DNA of 64,000 nt. Source: an uncultured Candidatus Saccharibacteria bacterium (lineage in GTDB: Bacteria; Patescibacteriota; Minisyncoccia; UBA6257; UBA9933). The stretch is taken from contig CAYRXZ010000001.1 in NCBI GenBank assembly GCA_964428615.1, forward strand, positions 2,334 to 66,333, given 5' to 3'. The translations under genes and the position numbers were made by a program. A model generated the notes under the pieces. The model was given only the letters and a program-made list of their open reading frames with translations, ran no database searches and was not told the DNA's origin. Positions 28,211-40,925 of the stretch are shown piece after piece (position 1 is the stretch's first letter; every line of letters starts with the position of its first letter).

Positions 28211-28696
28211 TTAATTTATCTGCGCGAAAAGTACCACATAATTCTTACCGTATGCTTTGGCGCACTTTGGGCAAGTGGTATAAGAAAAGTATAATTTATT
28301 TAACTTCTTACCTTTATTCTCAACATGTATCTTCATTTCTTGCGCCCATTTACCGGCATTTTTATATGGTCCTTCAAAAACTTTTGTTAAAAAAGTTCCG
28401 GAGAGAGCCGCCATTTGTGCGCCAGAGACATCTTTAGATACATCAATATAAATATCCGCGCCCCAAAGAGATTTCTCGTCTGTTAACATTAATTGCTGTG
28501 GCGCTTTAGCATCCGCCTTCTCGATTAATTCCATATTCTTAACTATTTTTTTCCCTATATTAAGAGGCATATGAAAAAAGCTAGTAATATGGTCTTTCAC
28601 AAAAATTTTATCTTTCCATGCAATTTCTTTATCCTGCCACGGCTCAGGATTAAACGGCTCGCAACAACCTGTTGATTTTATTGTTTGATTATCCAT
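28211..28696 (-). CDS. Hypothetical protein with C-terminal CPKC motif
   Basis: 161 aa; no recognised domain. Confidence 0.3.
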   Translation of the reverse strand: MDNQTIKSTGCCEPFNPEPWQDKEIAWKDKIFVKDHITSFFHMPLNIGKKIVKNMELIEKADAKAPQQLMLTDEKSLWGADIYIDVSKDVSGAQMAALSGTFLTKVFEGPYKNAGKWAQEMKIHVENKGKKLNKLYFSYTTCPKCAKAYGKNYVVLFAQIN

Positions 28697-28740
28697 ATTT
28701 TTATTATACCATTATATTCCGCCAACCACAAAATAAACAA

Positions 28741-28770
28741 AAAAACAGGCGTTTTACGCCTGTTTTTATA
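28741..28770. terminator. Rho-independent terminator (AAAAA CAGGCGttttaCGCCTG TTTTT)
   Basis: 7-bp perfect stem with flanking A/T runs right after stop of 28785..29087 gene. Confidence 0.55.
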
Positions 28771-28784
28771 CAAATATCTATTTT

Positions 28785-29087
28785 CTATTTCTGCTTACGC
28801 ATTTCACGTATATCTTTTTTTACAACCCTAGCTACATCGCCGCCTATCTTAATGCTATTTTTAAGGCCGACTTTAAGCGACTTCATGCCTTTTTTCCCCG
28901 CTTTTTTAGCAGCCACTTCAAATTCTTCTTTATATTTTTTCCGCTGAGGCTCTGAGGCTTTCCATTTTTTCTGTATTACTTTCGCCATCTTGCCGGCTTG
29001 CTTATCCGCTTTTTTCGCTAATACTCCTGTTTTTTTTGCCGCGCCTCGCGCGAATGATTTTATCTTTTTTATCGTTTTTTTGTTCAT
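28785..29087 (-). CDS. Highly basic Lys/Ala-rich small protein (histone-H1-like, hypothetical)
   Basis: 100 aa, ~35% Lys, AKKAGKK repeats. Confidence 0.35.
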   Translation of the reverse strand: MNKKTIKKIKSFARGAAKKTGVLAKKADKQAGKMAKVIQKKWKASEPQRKKYKEEFEVAAKKAGKKGMKSLKVGLKNSIKIGGDVARVVKKDIREMRKQK

Positions 29088-29316
29088 TTTATTTAATTAT
29101 TTTTACGCAAAAATTCAATTTCGCCCCTTTATTCAATTAAGTTTAATTCCTATAGTGGCGTAAATCAATATTTTTAACTTCCCGGACAACCTATCCGCCG
29201 ACAGGCAGGTTTAAGCCCATAATCTTAAAATCATTATATCAGATTTTACCCTACCCTACTACTCACGATTTTATTATACCACGAAAAATAAAAAATCCCG
29301 CTTTTTATTTTTCGTT

Positions 29317-29844
29317 TTAACGACGAAGGAAGTTCGCGACTCCTACTAATTGAAGTTTATATTCACCCTGAGAAACCTGTCTCAGGGTTATAGTCTCGGA
29401 TGTGTATGAACCAGAGAATATTCCATAGCCTCCTCCAGATAAATTTTCAATACGAGAGCCATTAAGCAATGCTTCCATATTTAGTGTTTCAATGTCCCAA
29501 TTATCACAAGTAGCGCCGCCATATGGAATATTTTTTGTTGATCCGTACATAAATTGACCATAGATGTGATTATTATTTTGGCTTGTTATTTTTAATTTGA
29601 TTGGACCCGTAAAAGTACAATAATTATCCGGAACATTAGTATTTTTAAAAGACGCTACGCCCTCCCAATTTCCTTTGAGATCGGCCACGGCCCCAAGATT
29701 AAATTTAGTTTCATCAATCTTTATATTCTCAATAGGTTTAATTTTTATTTCTGATTTTGATCTAAAAACAAAAACAGGAACAACTACAATGATTATTGTA
29801 GTAATAAGTACAAAAGGCCAAAATTTTACTAACCATGGACGCAT
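29317..29844 (-). CDS. Hypothetical exported protein (N-terminal TM)
   Basis: 175 aa; no known domain. Confidence 0.3.
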   Translation of the reverse strand: MRPWLVKFWPFVLITTIIIVVVPVFVFRSKSEIKIKPIENIKIDETKFNLGAVADLKGNWEGVASFKNTNVPDNYCTFTGPIKLKITSQNNNHIYGQFMYGSTKNIPYGGATCDNWDIETLNMEALLNGSRIENLSGGGYGIFSGSYTSETITLRQVSQGEYKLQLVGVANFLRR

Positions 29845-29866
29845 ATTTTTATTTCAACATACAATT

Positions 29867-29917
29867 TGGCTCCCCGGGTAGGATTTTCCGCCAAAGCGGA
29901 ATAAACTTCCCTACAAC
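29867..29917 (-). pseudogene. tRNA 3'-half-like fragment (T-arm with hairpin insert + acceptor 3' strand)
   Basis: Reverse complement GGTTGTAGG-[GAAGTTTATTCCGCTTTGGCGGAAA]-ATCCTACC-CGGGGAGCC aligns to T-arm/acceptor of adjacent tRNA-Asn. Confidence 0.45.
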
Positions 29918-29936
29918 CTTTTATATTTAAACTTCT

Positions 29937-29998
29937 CTGCTCCGCGGGTAGGATTCTTCGCCTAAGGCGAATGCGCCTCTGGCTCAGAACCTACAAAT
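29937..29998 (-). pseudogene. tRNA 3'-half-like fragment with 31-nt structured insert in T-loop
   Basis: Reverse complement TTGTAGGTTC-[TGAGCCAGAGGCGCATTCGCCTTAGGCGAAG]-AATCCTACC-CGCGGAGCA; insert identical (1 mismatch) to that at 30354..30400. Confidence 0.45.
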
Positions 29999-30250
29999 CT
30001 ATATCAATAAATTATTTAACTCTTTTCTCCCTTGACCAGATTTCAAAAATTTTTCACGTTTCATTGCTTCGCTACGAGTTAAGAATCCCTCCCTATAAAT
30101 CAGTTTCCACGGCATTCTCCCCTTAGTATAACGACATTTCCCCGAATTATGTTCCTTTATTCTTTTACTAAGATTATTTGTACTGCCAATATATTTAGTA
30201 TCAAAAGACGAACTTTTTATTACGTGTAATACATTGCAAATAAAATCCCT
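29999..30250 (-). CDS. Small GIY-YIG nuclease (YhbQ/COG2827-like); start codon ambiguous
   Basis: KYIGSTNNLSKRIKEHNSGK...PWKLIYREGFLTRSEAMKREKFLK = GIY-YIG core; the ORF-track N-terminus (to 30328) is just translated tRNA-Asn; no in-frame ATG after the tRNA. Confidence 0.5.
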   Translation of the reverse strand, partial: RDFICNVLHVIKSSSFDTKYIGSTNNLSKRIKEHNSGKCRYTKGRMPWKLIYREGFLTRSEAMKREKFLKSGQGRKELNNLLI

Positions 30251-30326
30251 TGCTCCGGCGGTAGGATTCGAACCTACAACCTTATCCTTAACAGGGATTT
30301 GCTCTGCCGTTGAGCTACGCCGGAGC
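30251..30326 (-). tRNA. tRNA-Asn (anticodon GTT), CCA not encoded
   Basis: Reverse complement GCTCCGGCGTAGCTCAACGGCAGAGCAAATCCCTGTTAAGGATAAGGTTGTAGGTTCGAATCCTACCGCCGGAGCA folds as cloverleaf; anticodon loop CTGTTAA. Confidence 0.8.
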
Positions 30327-30353
30327 AAAAGATTTTATTAAATAAATTTACAT

Positions 30354-30465
30354 TTGGTAGGATTCTTCGCCTAAGGCGAATGCGCCTCTGGCGCAGAACC
30401 TACAACCGTCTCGTTAACAGCAAGCTGCTCTGCCTCCGCCAGCCGGCGGAGAGCTACGCCGGAGC
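30354..30465 (-). pseudogene. Degenerate tRNA-Asn(GTT)-like copy with 17-nt D-loop and 31-nt T-loop hairpin insertions, lacking 3' acceptor strand
   Basis: Reverse complement GCTCCGGCGTAGCTC-[TCCGCCGGCTGGCGGAG]-GCAGAGCA-GCTTGCTGTTAACGAGAC-GGTTGTAGGTTC-[TGCGCCAGAGGCGCATTCGCCTTAGGCGAAG]-AATCCTACC then AAATG. Confidence 0.5.
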
Positions 30466-30473
30466 AAAGCATT

Positions 30474-30872
30474 TTATACTTTCTTGTCTTTTCCTTTTTT
30501 GTCCAATTTTTTCAGCTGATTTTTTATTTCCTCCAAATCGCTTTTTATCTGTCTTAAACTTACTGCCTCGCCTCTTAATTCTTCTTCTGTTTTTTCATCA
30601 ATTCTCTTTTCTTCTTTAATACCGCTCAGTAAAATTTGGTCGCCGATAAAAAAAGAAACAAATAATCCAGTTGTCAATAAAATAAGAACGCTTATTAATA
30701 TTGAAACTGGTCCTGTCATAAAGGGAAACATGTCTGCTGTCATCCAAATTCCGCGCCAAAGCAAAACAATACCTATACTTCCAACTATCGCGTAAAGAAC
30801 CGGATGATGTGAAAGCGCCCCTCTGACTTTATCCTCAAATTTATCAAAAAATTTCATCATATTCATACTCAA
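30474..30872 (-). CDS. Hypothetical membrane protein with C-terminal coiled coil
   Basis: 132 aa; 2 TM helices then charged helix. Confidence 0.35.
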   Translation of the reverse strand: MSMNMMKFFDKFEDKVRGALSHHPVLYAIVGSIGIVLLWRGIWMTADMFPFMTGPVSILISVLILLTTGLFVSFFIGDQILLSGIKEEKRIDEKTEEELRGEAVSLRQIKSDLEEIKNQLKKLDKKGKDKKV

Positions 30873-30930
30873 AATTCAACAATCACCATTATAATTTTTA
30901 AAAGGCTCCCTGTCAAAGACATGGGAGCCT

Positions 30931-31326
30931 TTATTGATAAGCATTTATGGCTTCCACTATTCTATTTTTCATAGTCTCGTAGCTTTCATAAAATTCTATC
31001 TCCACAGTTGGGATATCCGGGTGCCTTTTCTTATGATTCTCTACCCATGCCTTCCCTGTAATAGACAAGGGGATAGATTGATATTTTCTTTTATCTATCC
31101 GAACTACGTAAAAATCTATACCTTCTTTAATATCCGAATAAGAAAATCTACCCGACGGAACAAACCCACTAATAATCCCTGAAGTTTTTAACTCTTTAAG
31201 AATTTTATTTACCATAAACTCTCTTCGCTTACCGATTCTTTCGCTGGCCCAATTACCGCAACTCTTAATTTCTTCTTTTATTTTTTCCCTTAACAAGAAG
31301 AATCTAACCATTTTGGGTTTTTTCAA
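30931..31326 (-). CDS. Hypothetical protein
   Basis: 131 aa; no recognised motif. Confidence 0.3.
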   Translation of the reverse strand: MKKPKMVRFFLLREKIKEEIKSCGNWASERIGKRREFMVNKILKELKTSGIISGFVPSGRFSYSDIKEGIDFYVVRIDKRKYQSIPLSITGKAWVENHKKRHPDIPTVEIEFYESYETMKNRIVEAINAYQ

Positions 31327-31369
31327 TTTCTATCGCCTCCTTTATTTTTTTATTTTTTTGAATGTTCTG

Positions 31370-31442
31370 TGCGCCCACCAGGGCTCGAACCTGGGACCTT
31401 CTCCTTAAAAGGGAGCCGCTCTACCAACTGAGCTATGGGCGC
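31370..31442 (-). tRNA. tRNA-Lys (anticodon TTT)
   Basis: Reverse complement GCGCCCATAGCTCAGTTGGTAGAGCGGCTCCCTTTTAAGGAGAAGGTCCCAGGTTCGAGCCCTGGTGGGCGCA; anticodon loop CTTTTAA. Confidence 0.8.
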
Positions 31443-31496
31443 AAAAGAACCCGTAGCTCGAGAGCATTAGGGCTCTTCTTATTTATTTTAAATCGT

Positions 31497-31940
31497 CTAT
31501 CTGGTTACAGATATCACTTCATCTAATTCAATAGAAGAACTAGAAACGCCAATAGTAATCCGACTGGTTGTGGCGTTTTGAAAAATCTGATATTTGGTAT
31601 CGGCAGCGCTTCCGTCTTTCGGATCAAAAACCATAGTAGAAACATAAGTCGGCACCAAACAAGGTTCCAAATTTACTAAACCGGCATCTGAGCCGATATT
31701 GGTTAGAAAACTAGGAATAGCTACTGTTGAAGCACCACAAGTGGTATTCCAAACTCCTTTATTATCAGCCATTCTTTGCCCAACCGCGTTCAAAATTGTA
31801 TTAACATTGCTCCATCTTTGAGTATTTCTTGCTTGAGCAAATTGCCGGGCTGGATTTAAAGCCACAATAACAACTGCCGCTAAAATAGCAATAATACCGA
31901 TAACTACCAACAATTCTATCAAAGTAAAACCTTTATTCAT
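31497..31940 (-). CDS. Type IV pilin / competence pseudopilin (prepilin N-terminal methylation domain)
   Basis: MNKGFTLIELLVVIGIIAILAAVV class-III signal peptide. Confidence 0.7.
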   Translation of the reverse strand: MNKGFTLIELLVVIGIIAILAAVVIVALNPARQFAQARNTQRWSNVNTILNAVGQRMADNKGVWNTTCGASTVAIPSFLTNIGSDAGLVNLEPCLVPTYVSTMVFDPKDGSAADTKYQIFQNATTSRITIGVSSSSIELDEVISVTR

Positions 31941-32012
31941 AACATATTTAACATTTTAGATAATCTTTCGACCTTTAATTTACGCCTTTATTATACCAAT
32001 ATATTAAAAAAA

Positions 32013-32390
32013 TCAAAATTTCGCAACTTCTTCCCAAAAAATAATCGATAAATCGCTTTCTTGAGCCGTAATTTTTAAATTGGTAGTTGCTTTCTGGAAA
32101 ATTGCCTTAGTTTTAATGATTTTTTGACTCGAGACGGTTTCAATCGGCAAAATAAAACACTGATATTCGCCTACAGAAATATTTTCATCGCCATTATAAG
32201 ATCTATCCCATGATAATTTTAATAAAGCCGTTTCAACACATGCCTCGGCCAAAGCAAAACTTCGTTCTTTGAATTCGGCGTCCAAAATATTAGCGCGGCT
32301 GAAAAAACCCGTAGAACTGACGGTTAAAGTAATCGTCATAAGTAAAATCGAAATAATAATTGTGGATATAATAGCAATATAACCTTTCAT
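32013..32390 (-). CDS. Hypothetical pilus-operon membrane protein (minor pilin-like)
   Basis: 125 aa; N-terminal hydrophobic helix; sits inside the pilin gene run. Confidence 0.3.
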   Translation of the reverse strand: MKGYIAIISTIIISILLMTITLTVSSTGFFSRANILDAEFKERSFALAEACVETALLKLSWDRSYNGDENISVGEYQCFILPIETVSSQKIIKTKAIFQKATTNLKITAQESDLSIIFWEEVAKF

Positions 32391-32848
32391 TTTCTTAAAT
32401 ATATAGTCGTATTAAATAATTTTGAATTGACTATTAAATTTATTTTTATTGCTTCCGGCAAATTGCCGTTAGCCGCCTGATGTTCAAAAATAACATTATT
32501 CACGGCAATATTTTGGCTGTTTAAGATATTCCACTCGTTCAAACCATTTTTTAATCTAAGATTATTAGAATTTAAATCAACAATAATTGGGTTGTCGGAA
32601 AAATTGGCTTTATTGACGGAAAGCGTTGAACTAGTTGCGTCAACCGGCGGGATATTGATTGCTGTCGCTCCGATTAAAGCCCATTTAATTTTTTGAAGCA
32701 GAAAATTCGCTTCTTGCTCAATAATGATTGAGTCATAAATACCATTATTGCTTTCAATTATTTGATAAACCGCCACAAGAGAACCGCCGATGATAATGGA
32801 GGTTAAAGCAGAATAGATTAAAATTTCAATTAAAGTAAAACCCCGCAT
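32387..32848 (-). CDS. Minor pseudopilin (prepilin-type N-terminal domain)
   Basis: MRGFTLIEILIYSALTSIIIGG prepilin-like leader. Confidence 0.55.
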   Translation of the reverse strand: MRGFTLIEILIYSALTSIIIGGSLVAVYQIIESNNGIYDSIIIEQEANFLLQKIKWALIGATAINIPPVDATSSTLSVNKANFSDNPIIVDLNSNNLRLKNGLNEWNILNSQNIAVNNVIFEHQAANGNLPEAIKINLIVNSKLFNTTIYLRK

Positions 32849-32849
32849 A

Positions 32850-34232
32850 TTAAGGACTTGATGTAATAATTCTTAAAGCGTCGTTTGAACGGACCGAAAC
32901 ATAAATAATATTGTCTTCATAATCTATGCCTGTAGCCATTTGTGGAAAATTAAAAAAACTCCATAACAAAGGACTGGAAGGATTGGAAATATTATATATT
33001 TTAAATTCCGCGTTGGCGTCTTCCGTTACCAAAAAAGCCAAAGAACCGGCTGAAACAATATCGCGAGTTTTATCGCCGATTGAAACTGAACCAACGATTG
33101 CCATATTGGAAACGTCGGAAGCGTTAACGATATAAAATTTTGTTTTTTCGCCAACCAGTATCTTGTCTTCGCTTTTTGAATAAACACTATAAGTATAATC
33201 GCCGATGTCGATTGACCCCAAAATAAACGGCGAGGTTGAGCTTACCACATCAACCACAATCATTCCTCTTTTAAAATCTTCAGTACCTAAATAAGCCCGA
33301 TTATTTAAAACATAAATGTCATTAATTCCATTGCCAACGCCTGAAAGGCCGGAAACTAATGAAGGATTTAAAGGATTATTCACATCAATAATTGAAAATT
33401 CCTGAGGGGCTCCGCTGGCGCGGCCGACATAAACATAATTATCCCAATAAAATATTGTTAAAGCGTCGGCATCGCCGGGCAAATCAAGAGAAGCTATTTC
33501 AACCGGCGCCGACAAATTACTAACATCAACAACGATGAATTCCTTATTATCATCCTTGCCGACCGTATAAGCGTAATTGCCGGCAACATCAATACTATTT
33601 AACCCTTCTCCCATATTAAGACTGGAAATAATAAAAGGACTTTGACCGTTGGCGGCATCAACGATAAAAAAATCCGGTTTGGTTTCAACACTCGCGATTG
33701 CCGAAAGATAAATAATTTTATTTTTAACATCTAAATCGGTGGCGGAAACTCCAGCTCCAAGATCAATTGAGCCCAAAGTTCGAGGATTTTCCCAATTGCC
33801 CGAAGGAGGACTTCCTCCGGTATCGCCGCCGGTCTCAAGAACCACCTGCTTATCCGTAATTAAAGTAACTAATTCAATTTTTTGCGGCCGCAATTTTTCA
33901 ATTTGCCAACTAACACGACTGATAATTTTTTTAGTATAAGTGTCAATATTATCAATAATTATTTCTTTTAAATAAATATCTTCCGTTGATGAACTTGATA
34001 TTAAAGAATTAAAATCTTGTTTGCCAGTCGCCCAAGCAGTTTCCAAAATTTGACGATTAAGATAAAGCGCCTGGTTACTCAATTCTGCGTCTATCGCCGT
34101 TGACTGATTCCCAAAAGAAATTATAACGGCGGCAGCAATACTTGTCGTTAAAATAAAAAGCGAAATAAGGATTTCCAGAGTGGATTGCCCCGTAGAATAA
34201 TTTTTTTTATTACCAATTAATTCTTCCTTCAT
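32850..34232 (-). CDS. Pilus-associated protein with N-terminal pilin-like helix and LVIVD-repeat beta-propeller
   Basis: 460 aa; TLEILISLFILTTSIAAAVI N-terminal helix; repeated ~40-aa units (FIVVDVSNLSAP, FSIIDVNNPLNP, MIVVDVVSSTSP, FKIYNISNPSSP) typical of LVIVD repeats. Confidence 0.45.
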   Translation of the reverse strand: MKEELIGNKKNYSTGQSTLEILISLFILTTSIAAAVIISFGNQSTAIDAELSNQALYLNRQILETAWATGKQDFNSLISSSSTEDIYLKEIIIDNIDTYTKKIISRVSWQIEKLRPQKIELVTLITDKQVVLETGGDTGGSPPSGNWENPRTLGSIDLGAGVSATDLDVKNKIIYLSAIASVETKPDFFIVDAANGQSPFIISSLNMGEGLNSIDVAGNYAYTVGKDDNKEFIVVDVSNLSAPVEIASLDLPGDADALTIFYWDNYVYVGRASGAPQEFSIIDVNNPLNPSLVSGLSGVGNGINDIYVLNNRAYLGTEDFKRGMIVVDVVSSTSPFILGSIDIGDYTYSVYSKSEDKILVGEKTKFYIVNASDVSNMAIVGSVSIGDKTRDIVSAGSLAFLVTEDANAEFKIYNISNPSSPLLWSFFNFPQMATGIDYEDNIIYVSVRSNDALRIITSSP

Positions 34233-34659
34233 TTTGAATTGATATTATTGACGAACGCGTCTCATTGGTCATGGTAATATTTCCTGTAATATTAGGGTTG
34301 CCTGTTAATTGTTCAAAAACGACTTCCTCTAAACCACCGCGAGTTATCGCTTGATTGGCTTTAATAATTTCATCATAAACGGTATCGCGCGATAAATAAT
34401 TTTCGCCTTGAAAAATTATGTATTCGCTATTTTTAAGATAAACGCCATGCTTGACCTCATTGATATTCGTCAACGATTGATTTCTGGCTTTCTGAAGAAC
34501 GCTGACTATTAGATTACGTTCGGAATTAAAACCATGGCTTTTATAGAAATCGATGCCGACAAATAAACCCAAAGCTCCAAGCGCAACAAAAATAGTCATT
34601 GCTATTAATAATTCAATAAGGGTGAAGCCCCTGTTATCTAAGGTTTTGGGTAACTTCAT
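34210..34659 (-). CDS. Major pseudopilin (GspG/ComGC-like), prepilin leader MKLPKTLDNRG|FTLIELL
   Basis: Class-III signal peptide; ORF-track start at 34713 likely over-extended, ATG at 34659 fits leader length. Confidence 0.6.
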   Translation of the reverse strand: MKLPKTLDNRGFTLIELLIAMTIFVALGALGLFVGIDFYKSHGFNSERNLIVSVLQKARNQSLTNINEVKHGVYLKNSEYIIFQGENYLSRDTVYDEIIKANQAITRGGLEEVVFEQLTGNPNITGNITMTNETRSSIISIQNEGRINW

Positions 34660-35689
34660 AAATTGGCGTAATAATTGAAAGAGCGACGAAACCGACAATC
34701 GCCCCCATAACAACCATTAAAAGCGGTTCTAAAACAGTTGATAAATTTTTTGTCATTTCATCAAGTTTTTTTTCGTGGAATTCCGAAAGGTATAAAAGAG
34801 TTTCGCTCAAATTACCCGTTGCCTCGCCGATAGCAATTAATTGCGAAAGCATTGGCGGAAAAAGACGCTGTCTCTTTTCTAAATGTTTTGAAATTTCCCC
34901 GCCACCGGAAATTTCTTTGGCTATTTCTTTAAATTCTTTTCTGTAAATAAGATTGGGCAAGCTATCAGCCGTAATAGAAAGAGCTTCAACGACTTTAACA
35001 TCGCTTTTGAGAAGCAAACTTAAAGTTCGACAAAAGTTCGCCATATTATAATTTTGGGAAATATCGCCGACAAGCGGCGTATAAAGAATTAAACGATCGG
35101 TAAAAAAACGAACCGATTTTATTTTCAACATTAACCAAGCGGAGATAATCATTATAATAATTCCAAAAACAACATAAACACCATAAATTAAAAGAAATTC
35201 ACTGACATTAATAAGAATTCTAGTGGTAATGGGAAGTTGGACTTTCAAACTTTTAAAAATCGGCAGAATTTTAGGAAAAATATAAACTGTTAAAAGACCG
35301 GTAATTATAAAAGTGGCGATAACAATAATAATCGGGTAGATAAGCGCGCTAAGCACTTTACGGCGCAGCTCCCGTTTTTTATTTAATTCTTCCGCCAGAT
35401 AATTTAAATTTTCATAAAGAATGCCACTAGCTTCGCCGACTCTGATGACATTAATCATTAAATCACCAAAGACGCCTTTAAAACGTTCCAAGCTGGTGGA
35501 TAAAAACTGACCATTGGCAATATCTTCGGTAATTTGCCCGAGAATTTCTATCATCGATTTTGACCTCGCCTGTTTTTGAAGAAGTTTAACGCTGTCCAAA
35601 ATCGGCATGCCGGCCTTAATCATCACCGCCAAATTTTTGGCAAAAATGATTTTTTCCTGCAGTGGAATCCAAAAGAAAAATTTATTCAT
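34634..35689 (-). CDS. Type II secretion/type IV pilus platform protein (GspF/PilC/ComGB family)
   Basis: 351 aa; two T2SS-F repeats with 3 TM segments. Confidence 0.7.
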   Translation of the reverse strand: MNKFFFWIPLQEKIIFAKNLAVMIKAGMPILDSVKLLQKQARSKSMIEILGQITEDIANGQFLSTSLERFKGVFGDLMINVIRVGEASGILYENLNYLAEELNKKRELRRKVLSALIYPIIIVIATFIITGLLTVYIFPKILPIFKSLKVQLPITTRILINVSEFLLIYGVYVVFGIIIMIISAWLMLKIKSVRFFTDRLILYTPLVGDISQNYNMANFCRTLSLLLKSDVKVVEALSITADSLPNLIYRKEFKEIAKEISGGGEISKHLEKRQRLFPPMLSQLIAIGEATGNLSETLLYLSEFHEKKLDEMTKNLSTVLEPLLMVVMGAIVGFVALSIITPIYEVTQNLR

Positions 35690-36896
35690 TGATTACTCTT
35701 AATATTTCTTCGACCGTGGTAATGCCGCTTATAACTTTTTGGAAACCGTCTTCAATCATAGTGGTCATTCCGTTTTTGATGGCAATCTTTTTTATTTCGC
35801 CAGCGTCAACCTTTTTTACTACAGCTGCTCTTATTTCATCATCCATTTCTAAAACTTCATAAATGCCGATTCGGCCGCGATAACCACTATGGTCGCATTT
35901 ATCGCAACCGCTACCCTGATAGAAATTTTTGTAATTCGCCAAAATTTTCCCAGGTAAAACACCTGAAAGACTTTTTATTTCATCTTGGGTGATAGATTTT
36001 TTAATTTTACAATCCGAACAAATTTTTCTCACCAATCGCTGGCCAATAGCGAGATTAATGGTGGAGGCGATTAAAAATGGCTCTATTTCCATATCAATAA
36101 GCCTAGGTAAAGTTGTGGCGGCATCATTGGTATGTAAAGTGGAAAGAAGAAGATGACCTGTTAGAGCGGCATTAATTGAGATCGAAGCGGTTTCTTCATC
36201 GCGAATTTCACCAACCATAATAATATTCGGGTCTTGTCTTAAAATAGAACGGAGGCCTGTGGCAAAAGTCAAACCGGTGCGCGGATTAACTTGAATCTGG
36301 TCTATTCCTTCAATAGCATATTCAATCGGGTCTTCAATAGTAATAATGGAAATTTCCGGCGTATTTAAAAGTTTGATCAAAGTATAAAGAACCGTTGTTT
36401 TCCCGGAACCGGTCGGTCCGGTAGAAAGAATCATTCCATAAGGTTTTTTAACGGCGTTAAGAATTTTCTTTTTATCCCTTTCACTAAAACCTAAGGTTTC
36501 TAAAATAAATTTTCCCGTTTTTTCCGCCAAAAGCCTTAAAACGGCATTTTCGCCGTAATAAGTCGGAGCGATGGAAACTCTGATGTCAATCGGGCCGACT
36601 TTTTTAATGACAAGACGGAAACGGCCATCTTGAGCCGCTTGATGCTCGTCGGTCCTTAACCCTGAAAGAACTTTAATTCTGGTAATTATTTCTGAATGAA
36701 TTTCCTTAGGAAAAATAAAACTATCATGAAGTACGCCATCAATTCTTAATCTGACCCGCAAACGTTTGTCTTCCGGATCAATATGAATATCAGAAGCTCT
36801 ACTTTCATAAGCATGTTCGATTAAGCTGTCTATCAAATCAATAATCGAAATTTGCTCTCCTTTTTTAATCTCTTGATCAATATTTTTTTTAGGCAT
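35682..36896 (-). CDS. Type II/IV secretion ATPase (GspE/PilB/ComGA family)
   Basis: 404 aa; Walker A GPTGSGKTT, Asp/His boxes, tetracysteine CSDCK...CDKCDHSG zinc motif; lacks N1 domain like ComGA. Confidence 0.75.
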   Translation of the reverse strand: MPKKNIDQEIKKGEQISIIDLIDSLIEHAYESRASDIHIDPEDKRLRVRLRIDGVLHDSFIFPKEIHSEIITRIKVLSGLRTDEHQAAQDGRFRLVIKKVGPIDIRVSIAPTYYGENAVLRLLAEKTGKFILETLGFSERDKKKILNAVKKPYGMILSTGPTGSGKTTVLYTLIKLLNTPEISIITIEDPIEYAIEGIDQIQVNPRTGLTFATGLRSILRQDPNIIMVGEIRDEETASISINAALTGHLLLSTLHTNDAATTLPRLIDMEIEPFLIASTINLAIGQRLVRKICSDCKIKKSITQDEIKSLSGVLPGKILANYKNFYQGSGCDKCDHSGYRGRIGIYEVLEMDDEIRAAVVKKVDAGEIKKIAIKNGMTTMIEDGFQKVISGITTVEEILRVINE

Positions 36897-36919
36897 TTCT
36901 TATTCGTCTTTACCCATAT

Positions 36920-38047
36920 TTAAATTTCTTTTTCCAGATCTTCTAAAATTTTTCTTGCCTTTGCGCTAACTTTTTTCGGCGTTTTAACTTTTAATTCTAC
37001 GATTAAATCACCTCTGCCAAACCCGCCAAACCTAGGCATTCCTTCTCCGCGAATCTTCAAATTCTCTTTTAAATCAAAATCTGCCGGAATTTCAATCTTT
37101 AATTTATTACCTGAAATAGTCAGAATATCAATCTTTTTATCTAACATCAAATCAATCATTTTAAAATCTTTTCTTATTATCAAATCATCTTCTTGCCGTT
37201 TAAAAATCTGGTGCGATTTAATTTTGATAATTATATAAAGGTCTCCTTCTTTAGCTCCGCGTTCGCCTGCTTCGCCTCCCCCCTGAATTTTTATTATTTG
37301 TCCGTCGGCAATGCCGGAACGAATTTCTATCGTTGTATTTTTTTCACCCATTACTTTGCCGACGCCACGGCAAACTTCGCAAACTTTTTTCGGAATCTGT
37401 CCTGTGCCAAAACATTTAGAGCAAGATTTTACTTGCATAATATCTCCAAAAAAACTTTTACGAATTTCTTTTATCTCACCTCTGCCGCCGCAAGTTTCGC
37501 ATTTATCAAAACCGGCTTTAGCGTCATGACCCAAGCCACTGCACTTTTCGCATTTTATCGAAACCGAATATTTTATTTTTTTCTCTGCCCCACGATATGC
37601 TTCTTCTAAATCTATTTCCTGAACTATTTGGACATCAGCTCCGCCATGATATGAACGGCGCTTTTGTTTTACACCCATACCTTCAAAAAACGCATCAAAT
37701 ACATCGCTCAAATCTCCAAAGTCGCCGGAAAAATTGACATTTGCTCCTCCAAAATCGAAACCAAAAGGATTTCCCTGAGTTCCGCCGAAGGGCCCGCCTT
37801 GCGAAAAATCAAATCCGTTAAATCCTCCGCCGGCTTGCTGACCGCCATCAAATACTCGGCCGAATCTGTCGTATTGTGCCCGCTTTTCTTTACTAGACAA
37901 AACTTTATACGCTTCGCTTATTTCCTTGAATTTCTTTTCGTCGCCGCCCTTGTCGGGATGATATTTATGCGCTAATTTCCGAAACGCTTTTTTAACGTCC
38001 TCTTCCGAAGCTCCCTTATTTATGCCAAGAATTTTATAATAATCCAT
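36920..38047 (-). CDS. dnaJ: Chaperone DnaJ
   Basis: J-domain [33 protein letters not shown], Gly/Phe region, four CxxCxGxG zinc-finger repeats. Confidence 0.85.
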
Positions 38048-39033
38048 TATTTTAAAATGACATTCTCTTTGCTTCTTCCTTCAAGTATAATCGTGCCGAA
38101 ACCCAAAGCCAAAAGAGTTTCATAAAGTAAAAACGAAACAAAAGCGGCAAGTAAACGAATTGGCCAAATAAAACTAATAATAACTAAAAATATGAAAACT
38201 GCAACCAATATTGGAGTAGAATTTAATATATTGTCCGGCAATGAATAAAATTTAACCGCTAAAAAGTCATACATCGTGTCGGAAAGCTTGCTTTGAAAAT
38301 TCAGCTGCGTCCCGGCCATACCCATTGCCTGACTTTTTACCTGTTGAATTGCATTACCTAATAATTCTTCTTTTATAGAATCTGGCAAAAGGCTAAGTTG
38401 AGGATTATTTTCAAGTTCCTTTGTGGCGATACTTCTTATCATTTCTTCTGTTGAACCGGCAAGATTAAAACCGGGCATAATTTTTTCCAAAACCCCATTA
38501 TCCGTTATTGGAGAAACTACAACATTGAAAGCATTTCGTGAGATAAAAAAGTCTTTATCGCTAACATCTATAAAACTTGCGCAAATAACTCCAGCAAACA
38601 CCGCTATTCCGGCAACCACCTTGGGTAAAACTTTTTTAGCAACTTTCCAAAACTTTATTTCAAGAGCATTTTCAATTTCTTTTCTGCCGGCATAAATGCC
38701 GGATACAAAAAATAAAAGGCCTAAAATTATCCCAACGCCAACCATTAAAGAAAATCTATCGTAAAAAAAGATAAAAAATGCCAAGCTTTGAAATAAAACC
38801 GCCAAAACAACCATCCATCCGGTTTTAATAAAGAAAACACAAAGCAAAAACACCGCCATGAAAGCAAGCGCCATTAATGAAGACAATAAAAGATTATTCC
38901 CGCCGCCGCTAACCATAAAAACCTGTACAAAAAATCCCGAAGCAAAAGAAAACACAACGCCGAAAAGCGACAAAATAATTATTTTAACCCTTGAACGGTC
39001 TAATGAAACCTCATCTGTTCCCGATGAATCCAT
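38047..39033 (-). CDS. Hypothetical polytopic membrane protein inserted between dnaK and dnaJ
   Basis: 328 aa; 6-7 TM helices; no known family. Confidence 0.3.
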
Positions 39034-39053
39034 AATTATATTATAGCAAATTT

Positions 39054-40925
39054 TTATTGATTAGGAGAATTTTGCTCTTTATTATCTTCATCACCCCCAT
39101 TGCTTTCATTGCCTTCTTTTTTTTCGGCATACATCGCTTGCCCTATTTTTTGAAGCTCTAAAGAAAGTTCGGAAGCGGCTGATTTTATTTCTTCAATATT
39201 CTGCGATTGATGAATTGAAGTTTTAAGTTTTTCAACTTTTTGATTTATAGAATCTTTAAGTTCGGCCGAAATTTTATCGCCAGCTTCGCTCACTGATTTT
39301 TCAGCTAGATAAACCGTCTGCTCGGCATGATTTTTTGCTTCTGCTAATTCTTTTTTCTGCCTATCTTCTTCGGAATGCGCCGCAGCTTCTTGTTTTAATT
39401 TTTCAACGTCTTCTTTTGAAAGCTGGGTTGAAGCTTCAATGCGAATTGATTGACTTTTACCGCTAGCTTTATCTTTTGCCGAAACATTCAAAATGCCATT
39501 AGCATCTATATCAAAAGAAACTTCAATTTGTGGAATGCCACGCGGAGAAGGCGGAACTCCGTCTAAAATAAATTTCGCCAAAGTTTTGTTATCTAAGGCC
39601 ATAGTGCGTTCGCCCTGTAGAATGTGAATTTCAACTGAAGTCTGATTGTCAGCCGCCGTTGAAAAAACCTGCGACTTTTGTGTCGGAATCGTTGTATTTT
39701 TTTCAAGAATCGGAGTAGCTACTCCGCCATATGTTTCAATGCCTAAAGTTAAAGGAGTAACATCTAAAAGTAAAACATCTTTTACATCGCCTTGAAAAAT
39801 TCCGGCTTGAATCGCAGCGCCGGCAGCAACAACCTCATCGGGATTAATTCCTTTATGCGGCTCTTTTCCAAAAAACTTTTTAACTGCTTCCTGAATGGCC
39901 GGCATTCTTGTCTGACCTCCAACCATTACTACTTCGTCTATTTCTGAAGGCTTAAAACCAGCTTCTTTAATTGTCTTTTCAACTAATTCAATTGAGCGTT
40001 CTATTTCAGCCTTAACAAGTTCTTCTAGTTTGGCGCGAGTAAATTTTAAAAGAAAATGTTTCGGCCCGGAAGTGTCAGAGGTTATATAGGGAAGATTTAT
40101 TTCACTTTCAAAGGCTGTTGAGAGCTCATGCTTGGCGCGTTCGGCCGCTTCTTTTAACCGCTGTAAAGCCAGTGGGTCACTCGAAATATCAATGCCTTCT
40201 TGTTTTTTATATTCTAAAACCAAGAATTCTATTATTTTTCTATCAAAATCATCTCCGCCCAAATGTGTATCTCCACCGGTAGCTTTTACTTCAACCGTTT
40301 CATCGCCGACTTCCAAAACAGAAATGTCAAAAGTCCCACCTCCAAAATCGTAAACCACAATCTGCTCATTTTTCTTTTTATTTAAACCGTATGCCAACGC
40401 TGCGGCTGTCGGTTCGTTTATTATTCTACGCACTTTCAGGCCGGCAATTTCTCCGGCATTTTTAGTTGCTTGTCTTTGAGAATCGTCAAAGTAAGCCGGA
40501 ACCGTAATAACCGCTTCTTCTATTTTTTCTCCAGTCTTCGCTTCAGCATCGGCTTTTAATTTTGCCAAAACCATAGCTGAAATCTCTTCCGGCTTGTACC
40601 ATCTGTCCGCCATTTTTATTTCCACTCCGCCAGTTGAAGATTTTTGAATATCAAAAGGAAGCCATGCCTTATCGCGCTGAACTTCTTTGTCTTCAAAATT
40701 GCGGCCAATCAACCGCTTAACCGAAGAAATTGTATTTTTAGGATTAACCACCGACTGTCTTTTTGCCAATAAGCCAACTAAGCGTTCGCTTGCCTTTGAA
40801 ATTGCGACTACAGAAGGCGTGGTACGGTTACCTTCGTGATTTTCTAAAATTTTCGGCTCGCCCGCTTCAATAATTGCCATCGCCGAATTTGTTGTTCCTA
40901 AATCTATTCCTAAAATTTTAGCCAT
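39054..40925 (-). CDS. dnaK: Chaperone DnaK (Hsp70)
   Basis: 623 aa; [27 protein letters not shown] Hsp70 signatures. Confidence 0.95.

Follow-up and report, generated by a model that had tools for sequence, protein, structure and literature searches.

Here we describe a tRNA-Asn locus in a 64,000-nucleotide (nt) stretch of DNA from an uncultured Candidatus Saccharibacteria bacterium (the 64-kb window, hereafter), where an intact tRNA gene and a small GIY-YIG nuclease gene lie between incomplete tRNA-Asn copies interrupted by hairpins, and we argue that the window holds a decayed but historically informative member of a widespread family of mobile elements. All features of the locus are on the minus strand of the window. 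Read 5′ to 3′, the stop codon of a gene for a 132-amino-acid (aa) membrane protein is followed, after 10 nt, by a tRNA-Asn copy truncated at its 3′ end (psi5′, 30356–30465), a 16-nt AT-rich spacer (30340–30355) reaching to the leader of the next gene, an intact tRNA-Asn(GTT) (30252–30324), an 18-nt trailer, the GIY-YIG open reading frame (ORF) ending at 29999, 4 nt, a first T-arm fragment (fragment 1, psi3′_1, 29939–29994), 15 nt, a second T-arm fragment (fragment 2, psi3′_0, 29867–29920) and the start of a gene for a 175-aa protein. The intact inner tRNA, with the acceptor stem TCCGGCG/CGCCGGA and no encoded CCA, is called by both ARAGORN (30252–30324) and Rfam (30253–30324, 68.6 bits); the other three tRNA-Asn-like copies are called by neither and are evident in the sequence itself. 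A scan of positions 28500–32000 against Rfam at E ≤ 5 found only tRNA and no intron or ribozyme family, and promoter and terminator scans of the locus gave nothing beyond the shuffled expectation. The first-pass annotation of the window had listed an intact tRNA-Asn(GTT) followed by a small GIY-YIG ORF lacking a canonical start, two 3′-half tRNA copies downstream and, upstream, a copy that keeps the GTT anticodon and lacks the 3′ acceptor strand, and this inventory is borne out by the tRNA and protein models and by the sequence.

The incomplete copies are highly structured. The psi5′ copy begins with a leader GC and the 5′ acceptor strand TCCGGCG (30457–30463); in its D arm, a 16-nt hairpin, TCCGCCGGCTGGCGGA (30435–30450), stands in place of AAC, the anticodon arm is intact with the loop CTGTTAA (30414–30420), and the 5′ strand of the T stem with TTC (30396–30403) runs into two adjoining 6-bp hairpins, TGCGCC-AGA-GGCGCA (30381–30395) and TTCGCC-TTA-GGCGAA (30366–30380). 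This 30-nt double hairpin (30366–30395) sits exactly between the TTC and the GAAT of the T-loop, and the copy ends in GAATCCTACC (30356–30365), one base past the T stem and without a 3′ acceptor strand. Fragment 1 consists of a T arm with the double hairpin (29957–29986), the 3′ acceptor strand CCGCGGA (29941–29947) and GC, and its insert differs from that of psi5′ by a single mismatch (TGAGCC for TGCGCC). The D-loop hairpin and the shared T-loop double hairpin had thus been noticed correctly at the outset, but they are 16 and 30 nt long rather than 17 and 31, and the two T-loop inserts are not strictly identical. Over 50 nt, the T-arm repeats of psi5′ and fragment 1 are 98% identical, and a 39-nt pattern matches twice in the window and never in 100 shuffles. 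Fragment 2 carries a single hairpin, TTCCGC-TTTG-GCGGAA (29886–29901), and has the 3′ end CCTAC CCGGGGA GCCA. GC-rich hairpins of this type occur nowhere else in the window (35.8% GC), and the 5′ and 3′ acceptor halves of the outer copies do not pair.

The ORF between the inner tRNA and fragment 1 encodes a GIY-YIG domain (Pfam PF01541, E = 1.5e-14, 54.5 bits against a cut-off of 22.6, profile positions 7–74 of 78) and is best described as an Slx1/UPF0213-like nuclease pseudogene (29999–30234, stop codon 29999–30001). After the tRNA, the frame of the domain has no ATG, GTG or TTG because a 4-nt deletion after codon 3 (after 30226; ATGTATTAC[GTTT]ACGTAAT) shifts the ATG at 30232–30234 out of frame; in DNA comparisons with homologous loci (L012, L001 and L018), the window reads ATGTATTAC and then ACGTAATAAAAAGT where L012 reads ATGTATTACGTTTACGTAATCAAAAGT. 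Homologs start with MYYVYV, and through the deletion-shifted start region, the Tyr of the first strand has become His in the window copy; the Tyr and Gly of the YIG motif, the Arg, the His-Asn and the Glu of the REK motif are invariant or nearly so among the homologs. Judging from these changes, the window copy is probably inactive, and the inactivation should be recent because the rest of the ORF is open and 66–74% identical to its homologs. An assembly artefact or sequencing error was considered for the missing start and rejected: the same deletion is present in a contig from an independent, second metagenome assembly (L201), which reproduces the locus with a single base difference in the trailer, an A for G that turns a G-U pair into A-U, and a further contig of that assembly (L216) matches the window exactly over the downstream half of the locus, including fragment 1 and the 3′ part of the nuclease gene.

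The history of the locus can be read from the same chromosomal site in relatives, reached through homologs of the 132-aa neighbour protein in genomes labelled Wolfebacteria, Tagabacteria and Paceibacterota. In L212 and L215, the site is empty, with one intact tRNA-Asn (tRNA-Asn_0; acceptor stem TCCCCGG/CCGGGGA, ending in ..CCTACCCGGGGAGCCAA), no fragments and no nuclease gene, precisely the comparison that the first-pass annotation had called for; the 3′ end of fragment 2 in the window is identical to the 3′ end of this tRNA. In L205–L210, a decayed 5′ remnant and a different, 70-aa GIY-YIG gene accompany an intact tRNA-Asn_1 (acceptor stem TCCGCGG/CCGCGGA, anticodon arm GCTCG-CTGTTAA-CGAGA, trailer GC-TGAGAAGTTTAAATA pairing with its own leader) and a homolog of fragment 2. 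The anticodon arm and variable loop of psi5′ match the intact tRNA-Asn of L205 and not the inner tRNA of the window, the 3′ acceptor strand of fragment 1 matches the same L205 gene, and the outer copy without its inserts, the trailer beside it and fragment 2 resemble the tRNA-Asn_1 region nearly base for base from the anticodon arm on. The inner tRNA (tRNA-Asn_2) differs from the resident type at 10 positions, in the anticodon stem and the variable region; the first 27 nt of psi5′ are 93% identical to it and the remainder is like the resident type. In L213 and L214, the 5′ part of tRNA-Asn_0 is cut off after the T stem, followed by a tRNA identical to the window's inner tRNA at 72 of 73 positions and then by an intact 91-aa GIY-YIG gene.

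Compared in this way, the evolutionary events at the site come out clearly: the sequences describe an insertion polymorphism with serial replacement. First, tRNA-Asn_0 was displaced and left its 3′ end behind as the older fragment 2; a cassette bringing tRNA-Asn_2 and the present nuclease later split tRNA-Asn_1, of which psi5′ and fragment 1 remain. The earlier suggestion of nested scars of a tRNA-targeting element was therefore essentially right and finds support in the series of alleles that relatives show at this site, but the roles of the copies need correction: the "canonical" tRNA-Asn is the foreign replacement rather than the original gene, and the outer insert-bearing copy is the former resident. 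The adjacent tRNA-Lys (window 31369–31442, minus strand) is uninterrupted, with identical sequence, in the window, L211, L212 and L215, and it has an upstream GIY-YIG cassette in L205 (1590–2010) and L213 (370–830).

Around these cassettes, some further details were seen. The breakpoints of the tRNA-Lys cassettes in L205 and L213 are in the D- or anticodon loop rather than in the T-loop, and the D-loop of the tRNA-Lys pseudo-copy in L205 (1590–1665) holds a perfect GC-rich palindrome of about 70 nt with CTGCC-type repeats, far above the usual 15-nt units. The 15 nt past fragment 2 (GCCAAATTGTATGTT, window 29855–29869) are identical to the flank past the 3′ pseudo-copy in an unrelated patescibacterial contig (L010:1205–1220), and the empty-site relatives diverge from the window directly after GCCAA; part of the flank beyond fragment 2 may belong to the element rather than to the chromosome. 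A contig with an identical neighbour protein (L203:1240–1251) follows the window up to the point where the inner tRNA starts (about 30328; ..AATAAAATCTTT|ACAAGAGCACA), departs from it there and stops after another 11 nt, which could be a strain variant or a branch of the assembly graph at the cassette boundary.

Tandem 3′ tRNA fragments behind an intact tRNA are also what successive integrations of a classical integrase-bearing island or prophage typically leave, with the GIY-YIG gene as left-over cargo. Integrative elements of that type likewise insert in a tRNA gene, restore it with carried sequence and leave 3′ fragments as direct repeats, in tandem after successive events, and in L212 and L215, a large serine recombinase gene does adjoin the same tRNA-Asn. 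We nevertheless regard this origin as very improbable. The window has no integrase or recombinase among its ORFs from 26 to 37 kb, the entire insert is only about 400 bp (0.4 kb), and the 5′ pseudo-copy (30356–30465) is not a product of integration at the 3′ end; the lack of a recombinase, the tiny insert and the 5′ remnants effectively exclude classical islands. The breakpoints, moreover, are in the T-loop and marked by a conserved hairpin unit, a complete tRNA is carried, and the compact unit of nuclease and tRNA recurs at about 100 loci. The recombinase of the empty-site relatives, a convergent 571-aa gene directly after the single tRNA-Asn (L212:2015–3438 and L215:1961–3384), may represent a second, unrelated type of element using the same tRNA gene.

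The architecture of the window recurs at many tRNA isotypes and in several phyla. We found 241 homologs of the nuclease, nearly all about 80 aa long and from Patescibacteria, fetched 80 of their genomic loci and compared about 200 other loci overall. A tRNA gene on the same strand lies within 120 nt of the ORF in 61 of the 80 loci; in many of the other 19, the contig stops within about 130 nt. The tRNA is downstream of the ORF for Gln (34 loci), Tyr (8), Ser (4) and Lys (1) and upstream for Asn (9), Ser (5), Gln (1) and Lys (1); besides Patescibacteria, the host labels include Margulisiibacteriota, Omnitrophota, Bacteroidota, Balneolaceae, Chloroflexi, Chlorobiota and Ignavibacterium. The complete layout of the window, with psi5′ bearing the double hairpin in its T-loop, spacer, intact tRNA, nuclease, and a double-hairpin T arm with the 3′ acceptor strand, is found at six other tRNA-Asn loci (L001, L010, L012, L018, L022 and L057), all with comparable AT-rich spacers. 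At the Gln, Tyr and Ser loci, the order is psi5′ with the double hairpin, nuclease and intact tRNA, in some cases with a hairpin-bearing 3′ fragment afterwards. The inner and outer tRNAs are always of one isotype. The outer acceptor halves of L033 are complementary (TGGGAGA/TCTCCCA) and unlike those of the inner tRNA (TGCGGGA/TCCCGCA), from which it follows that the outer copy is a disrupted gene and the inner one a different gene. Contigs of several independent assemblies (L201–L204, L211 and many of L001–L200) end in or beside such tRNA/GIY-YIG loci. Short-read assembly evidently fails at the repeated tRNA and hairpin units, and the elements are therefore probably under-represented in metagenome-assembled genomes.

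The most distinctive component of the family is the double hairpin, which splits the T-loop between C56 and G57 in the T-arm copies bounding the cassettes. A strict pattern, GGTTC followed by two hairpins and GAATC, gave 52 instances in 40 of 81 sources, every one of them on the nuclease strand, and extraction by the anchors without any pairing requirement returned mostly the same 40-nt hairpin unit. Over 39 distinct sequences, the two-hairpin fold is 99.1% paired, with six pairs changed on both sides (45 cells), and none of 500 shuffles reached either the observed paired percentage or the covariation score. Structured inserts, initially held to be an anomaly for integration scars, are thus a conserved hallmark of the element family. 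Searching metagenomes from the hairpin side, we found 134 sites, 69 of them with a nuclease within 700 nt, on the same strand in 68. Of the nuclease-free sites, we examined 28; most are hairpin-bearing 3′ fragments with an intact tRNA (Cys, Val, Ala, Pro, Ser, Arg, Met or Gln) 20–60 nt upstream, and one (L170) retains the 3′ end of a nuclease gene. Such solo units, composed of a terminator-like stem-loop, GGTTC, the double hairpin and a tRNA 3′ end, also form tandem arrays after tRNA-Ala and tRNA-Pro (L103:5778–5912 vs. L124:2475–2515; L137:4440–4631), and the copy number of an array varies between samples with identical flanks (L103 vs. L124). Altogether 80% of such hairpins are within 500 nt of a tRNA, a zone making up 21% of the 1.2 Mb of fetched loci, a figure that is only indicative as the loci were chosen for the element.

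Several other origins of the hairpins were tried and rejected. If the hairpin were an independent insert in an intact tRNA, its removal should leave a tRNA behind; excision in silico at 194 sites gave nine ARAGORN calls, without a real 3′ acceptor strand, no double hairpin in an otherwise complete tRNA was found among these sites, and removal of the hairpins from the window copies restored no complete tRNA. The last result, together with the lack of any Rfam intron match at E ≤ 5, also disposes of a group I intron in the tRNA. A bulge-helix-bulge fold, as in archaeal-type introns and split tRNAs, can be drawn, but it shows no compensatory changes and 85% pairing, below that of the shuffles, and the host is bacterial. 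A phage origin finds no support either: the hairpin pattern has no match in 2.9 million viral contigs, and PHROG matches of the nuclease are weak, of a generic homing-endonuclease type and limited to one homolog.

The covariation could also mean that the hairpin-bearing pieces are functional RNAs of the element or the host, such as ends of the nuclease mRNA, processing signals or tRNA-like decoys. Hairpins and pieces share the transcribed strand with the nuclease and the tRNA in all cases, the loops show a strand asymmetry, with mostly purines in hairpin 1 and mostly pyrimidines in hairpin 2, and in the commonest arrangement, the pseudo-copy and its hairpins lie 10–35 nt upstream of the nuclease start, where they would form a 5′ untranslated region; the leader/trailer helix of the inner tRNA, described below, resembles a processing stem. 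However, folding each sequence by itself with RNA energies gives another, nested hairpin as the minimum-energy structure for 38 of the 39, and with DNA energies two separate hairpins come out for 16; what is conserved is therefore not just whichever RNA fold is most stable. Several solo units have a terminator-like stem-loop and T-run, read by eye, between the tRNA and the hairpin unit, which may therefore not be transcribed at all. The pieces are remnants of a gene that is intact in relatives, Rfam gives tRNA only, and a mobile-element origin would be compatible with such a role and merely acquire an addition. We find this reading improbable as an explanation of the locus, and its variant proposed at first, tRNA-like decoys or split and permuted tRNAs, is not supported, given the orthology of the pieces to an intact tRNA, the unpaired acceptor halves of the window and the absence of complete hairpin-bearing tRNAs among the 194 sites. 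In the alignment of the 40-nt unit, A/G-A-A or A-G-A predominates in the first loop and T-C/T-T/C is found in the second; with the complementary GGTTC and GAATC flanks, this loop composition allows refolding to one long nested hairpin, a fold that does not covary.

A second structural component is attached to the intact tRNA. The acceptor stem of the inner tRNA extends by 15 bp into its flanks (inverted repeat I2, 22 nt, 91% complementary), the leader strand AATAAAATCTTTTGC (30325–30339) pairing with the trailer strand GCAAGGGATTTTATT (30239–30253), and the fold of 30237–30340 has a z-score of −7.2. The window's other three tRNAs have no such helix. Pairing at 12 or more of 14 flank positions is seen in 34 of the 105 distinct tRNAs that adjoin a nuclease gene, with a sequence of its own in every case; in a control with leaders and trailers mismatched between loci, the rate is 0.6%. 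Beside fragment 1, the relic trailer of tRNA-Asn_1, AGAGAAGTTTAAATA (29924–29938), has lost its partner leader; its counterpart in the alignment with L205 is the trailer TGAGAAGTTTAAATA, still paired there with its own leader. Each cassette tRNA therefore takes its helix along, and the function could be that of a processing stem or, at the DNA level, of a cruciform. Some patescibacterial tRNAs without a neighbouring nuclease gene have extensions of 12–17 bp, in part very GC-rich (tRNA-Trp in L011, 2686–2759; tRNA-Thr in L032, 1701–1776, and in L002, 2081–2156), and may be former cassette tRNAs or indicate that the helix is a more general processing feature.

By sequence, the nuclease family is nearest to the UPF0213 proteins and the nuclease domains of SLX1 and not to intron-encoded enzymes. 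Its nearest solved structures are 1zg2 (E = 2.8e-11) and 1ywl (1.4e-09), followed by SLX1 chains (8.5e-05 to 6e-03), and the model of group I intron endonucleases (TIGR01453) scores only 17–21 bits against a cut-off of 56. The proteins share a single compact GIY-YIG domain with SLX1 and the YhbQ-like UPF0213 proteins and have no separate DNA-binding module, which sets them apart from ordinary Seg-like genes. SLX1 has a C-terminal zinc-finger domain and acts together with SLX4 on branched DNA; the UPF0213 proteins from structural genomics have no assigned function, and we know of no SLX1 or UPF0213 member that is tRNA-linked or mobile. Database gene calls of the homologs often have N- or C-terminal extensions (..GSNP..AKDFIC), which are translated tRNA T arms. 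The window nuclease is 66–74% identical to proteins of distant Patescibacteria and only 45–48% identical to the same-site nucleases of syntenic relatives; such identity levels suggest a phylogeny incongruent with that of the hosts and thus horizontal spread. The nucleases cluster by tRNA isotype, with 79 of 112 nearest neighbours in the same class vs. 27% by chance, and the tRNAs adjacent to them are enriched in the T-loop GGTTCGAATCC (78% vs. 38%).

The tight and widespread linkage to tRNA genes in reduced genomes could also be taken for a host-beneficial module, in which a tRNA-linked nuclease serves repair, defence or tRNA-gene amplification and selection keeps the tRNA material. Spare tRNAs with altered anticodon stems could resist anticodon nucleases, the tandem arrays differ in copy number (L103 vs. 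L124), and phage SegB is reported to drive the amplification of a tRNA locus by which defence is evaded (PMC13096335). We find this reading scarcely credible, the least so of those considered. The window copy of the gene has a frameshift, several other loci have truncated or decayed copies and the empty-site relatives have none, different nuclease lineages occupy the same site, and the duplicated tRNA pieces are non-functional fragments; matches to known anti-phage defence systems (PADLOC) are weak and at the level of motifs only, 20–30 residues with E values of 1e-2 to 1e-5.

We favour the explanation that the locus arose when small mobile cassettes invaded one tRNA-Asn gene at least twice in succession, through a form of homing without an intron, and we put its probability at roughly 0.7. 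Neither an intron nor an intein holds the nuclease ORF, which has a tRNA on one side and a tRNA fragment on the other, and the cassette would comprise the gene for the Slx1/UPF0213-like GIY-YIG protein of about 80 aa and a complete replacement tRNA with its own leader/trailer helix, bounded by the hairpin-split T-arm copies. In the mechanism that we infer, the nuclease would be expressed from the promoter of the captured tRNA and break an unoccupied tRNA gene at or near a loop, and the break would be repaired by copying the cassette from the occupied allele with the tRNA halves serving as homology arms. The spare imported tRNA would render the disruption harmless and keep the cell viable, and the nuclease gene could then decay, as in the window, until the site is invaded again; invasion, decay and re-invasion make up the classical homing cycle. 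The one-sided variants observed could arise when a broken end pairs with the inner tRNA instead of the outer copy. Homing is favoured because resident halves are kept on both sides, because the nuclease lineages are faithful to an isotype, because one T-loop sequence is enriched in the tRNAs beside them and because the insertion point is the dyad of TTCGAA, a T-loop palindrome (TTC|GAA) centred on it. The nuclease, first described as remaining cargo, is then most likely the driver of the element, here frameshifted. The hairpins would probably make the split copies immune to re-cutting, break the homology that could otherwise delete the cassette or serve as a handle for the nuclease.

On the other hand, several observations fit this explanation poorly. 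Cleavage of the unoccupied allele is a prediction, as regards both activity and target, for every member of the family, and the enzyme is a bare catalytic domain with no DNA-binding domain, unlike the characterised GIY-YIG homing enzymes. The inner tRNA and many other tRNAs keep the presumed palindromic target in their T-loops and should be cut too. A single clean homing event does not predict a mosaic psi5′, and a simple insertion model does not call for the two double-hairpin copies that flank the cassette. Nor are the hairpins strictly junction markers: they occur in the D-, anticodon and T-loops of pseudo-copies and also away from junctions, as in L213, where a double hairpin is in the anticodon loop of a displaced 3′ pseudo-copy of tRNA-Lys, off the cassette junction. 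Roughly every second hairpin site lacks a neighbouring nuclease gene. Finally, all our data come from metagenome assemblies, which are prone to break at exactly these repeats.

The missing DNA-binding domain, the retained target, the mosaic, the two hairpin units and the off-junction hairpins together make a transposon-like, structure-specific mechanism a serious rival. Here, an Slx1-like nuclease would cut the loops of extruded hairpins or cloverleaves, the double hairpins would be the ends of the element, and insertion of the cassette, or of the hairpins by themselves, into single-stranded loops would need no homologous donor allele. The closest characterised relatives of the enzyme, SLX1, are indeed structure-specific, hairpins are found in all three tRNA loops of the pseudo-copies and even within the loops of other hairpins (L017 and L049), two direct copies of the unit flank the cassette, the long inverted repeat of the inner tRNA could extrude as a cruciform, and the minimum-energy DNA fold consists of two separate hairpins in the 16 of 39 sequences mentioned above. 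In L017 (2330–2480), both hairpins of a T-loop unit have further hairpins in their own loops; loops seem to be the preferred place for adding hairpins. We still consider such transposition unlikely, as the nuclease lineages are largely faithful to one isotype and the inner and outer isotypes are always equal with the resident halves kept, exactly as repair-templated copying predicts. Apart from tRNA sequence, no target-site duplication was seen, and no hairpin-only insertion in an intact tRNA was found, although such an insertion would be lethal and be removed.

A related and rather doubtful proposal is that the nuclease finds its target without sequence recognition between protein and DNA. 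It could either be structure-specific, with the covarying double hairpins and the tRNA cloverleaf or leader/trailer cruciform as DNA handles, or be led to a homologous tRNA gene by a transcript of the partial tRNA and its hairpins, encoded directly upstream of the ORF and acting as a combined guide and handle, by analogy with transposon-encoded guide RNAs. If true, the former would amount to a new class of hairpin-ended, loop-targeting GIY-YIG transposons, and either would be a programmable or structure-programmed minimal nuclease system.

For the favoured homing cassette, precedents exist in other systems. The closest in logic are the fungal mitochondrial mORFs (Allomyces macrogynus atp6; Glomus atp6, atp9, cox2 and nad3), in which a free-standing endonuclease ORF comes with a foreign partial copy of the target gene that takes over its function, the native gene end remains downstream and non-functional, the remnant is like that of close relatives and the inserted copy divergent, and relatives have empty sites (PMC3630166). 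In our case, the target is a tRNA gene rather than a protein gene and the hosts are bacterial, the import comprises an entire tRNA, and remnants can stay on the 5′ as well as the 3′ side. The enzyme consists of nothing but a catalytic domain of about 80 aa, a conserved double hairpin is present at the junctions, and a leader/trailer helix comes with the imported tRNA. SegB-type enzymes are larger, with DNA-binding modules, and are not known to split a tRNA gene, to bring a replacement copy or to involve a hairpin unit. Among them, T4 SegB is the closest GIY-YIG precedent in a tRNA setting: its gene lies among tRNA genes outside an intron, and the enzyme is reported to cut the tRNA region of alleles that lack the endonuclease and to be inherited preferentially, with co-conversion of the flanks (PMC2330249).

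The hairpins have parallels in their build, with no sequence relationship expected, in the mitochondrial double-hairpin elements, GC clusters and palindromes (double-hairpin elements of Allomyces; palindromes flanking tRNA genes in Neurospora). These are short GC-rich units of one or two hairpins in AT-rich genomes, regarded as mobile, and variable loops of RNA genes as well as the surroundings of tRNA genes are frequent locations (PMC2800124 and references 12 and 17 therein). Those of the window family are tied to one nuclease family and to the loops of pseudo-copy tRNAs and are not dispersed over the genome. In the same phylum and the same isotype, group I introns of patescibacterial tRNA-Asn likewise interrupt a tRNA gene missed by standard tools; they are self-splicing ribozymes at position 35/36, mostly without homing endonucleases, and the paper describing them does not mention GIY-YIG (PMC13011429). 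The tRNA-Asn locus of the window has no ribozyme, and its interrupted copy is not restored by splicing; instead, a second intact gene is supplied. We found no published description of this architecture or element family in a literature search that covers few subscription journals.

If the favoured explanation is true, certain tRNA genes in Patescibacteria and several other phyla lack the stability of housekeeping loci, as selfish cassettes that bring a spare tRNA serially overwrite them, and this would be a route for the horizontal exchange of tRNA genes in organisms with minimal genomes. It would also explain a frequent annotation problem, namely the GIY-YIG "proteins" with tRNA-derived extensions, the stray tRNA fragments and the assembly breaks at tRNA genes, and provide the first functional context for a sub-family of the uncharacterised small UPF0213/YhbQ/Slx1-like GIY-YIG proteins. 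In the double hairpin, this very small nuclease would have a conserved nucleic-acid partner, and the rule of their recognition could be studied at the bench.

Outside the tRNA-Asn locus itself, the window contains a type IV pilus-like cluster just upstream of the tRNA-Lys (31497–40925, minus strand), with several pilins bearing N-terminal methylation motifs, a T2SSF platform protein and a T2SSE ATPase.

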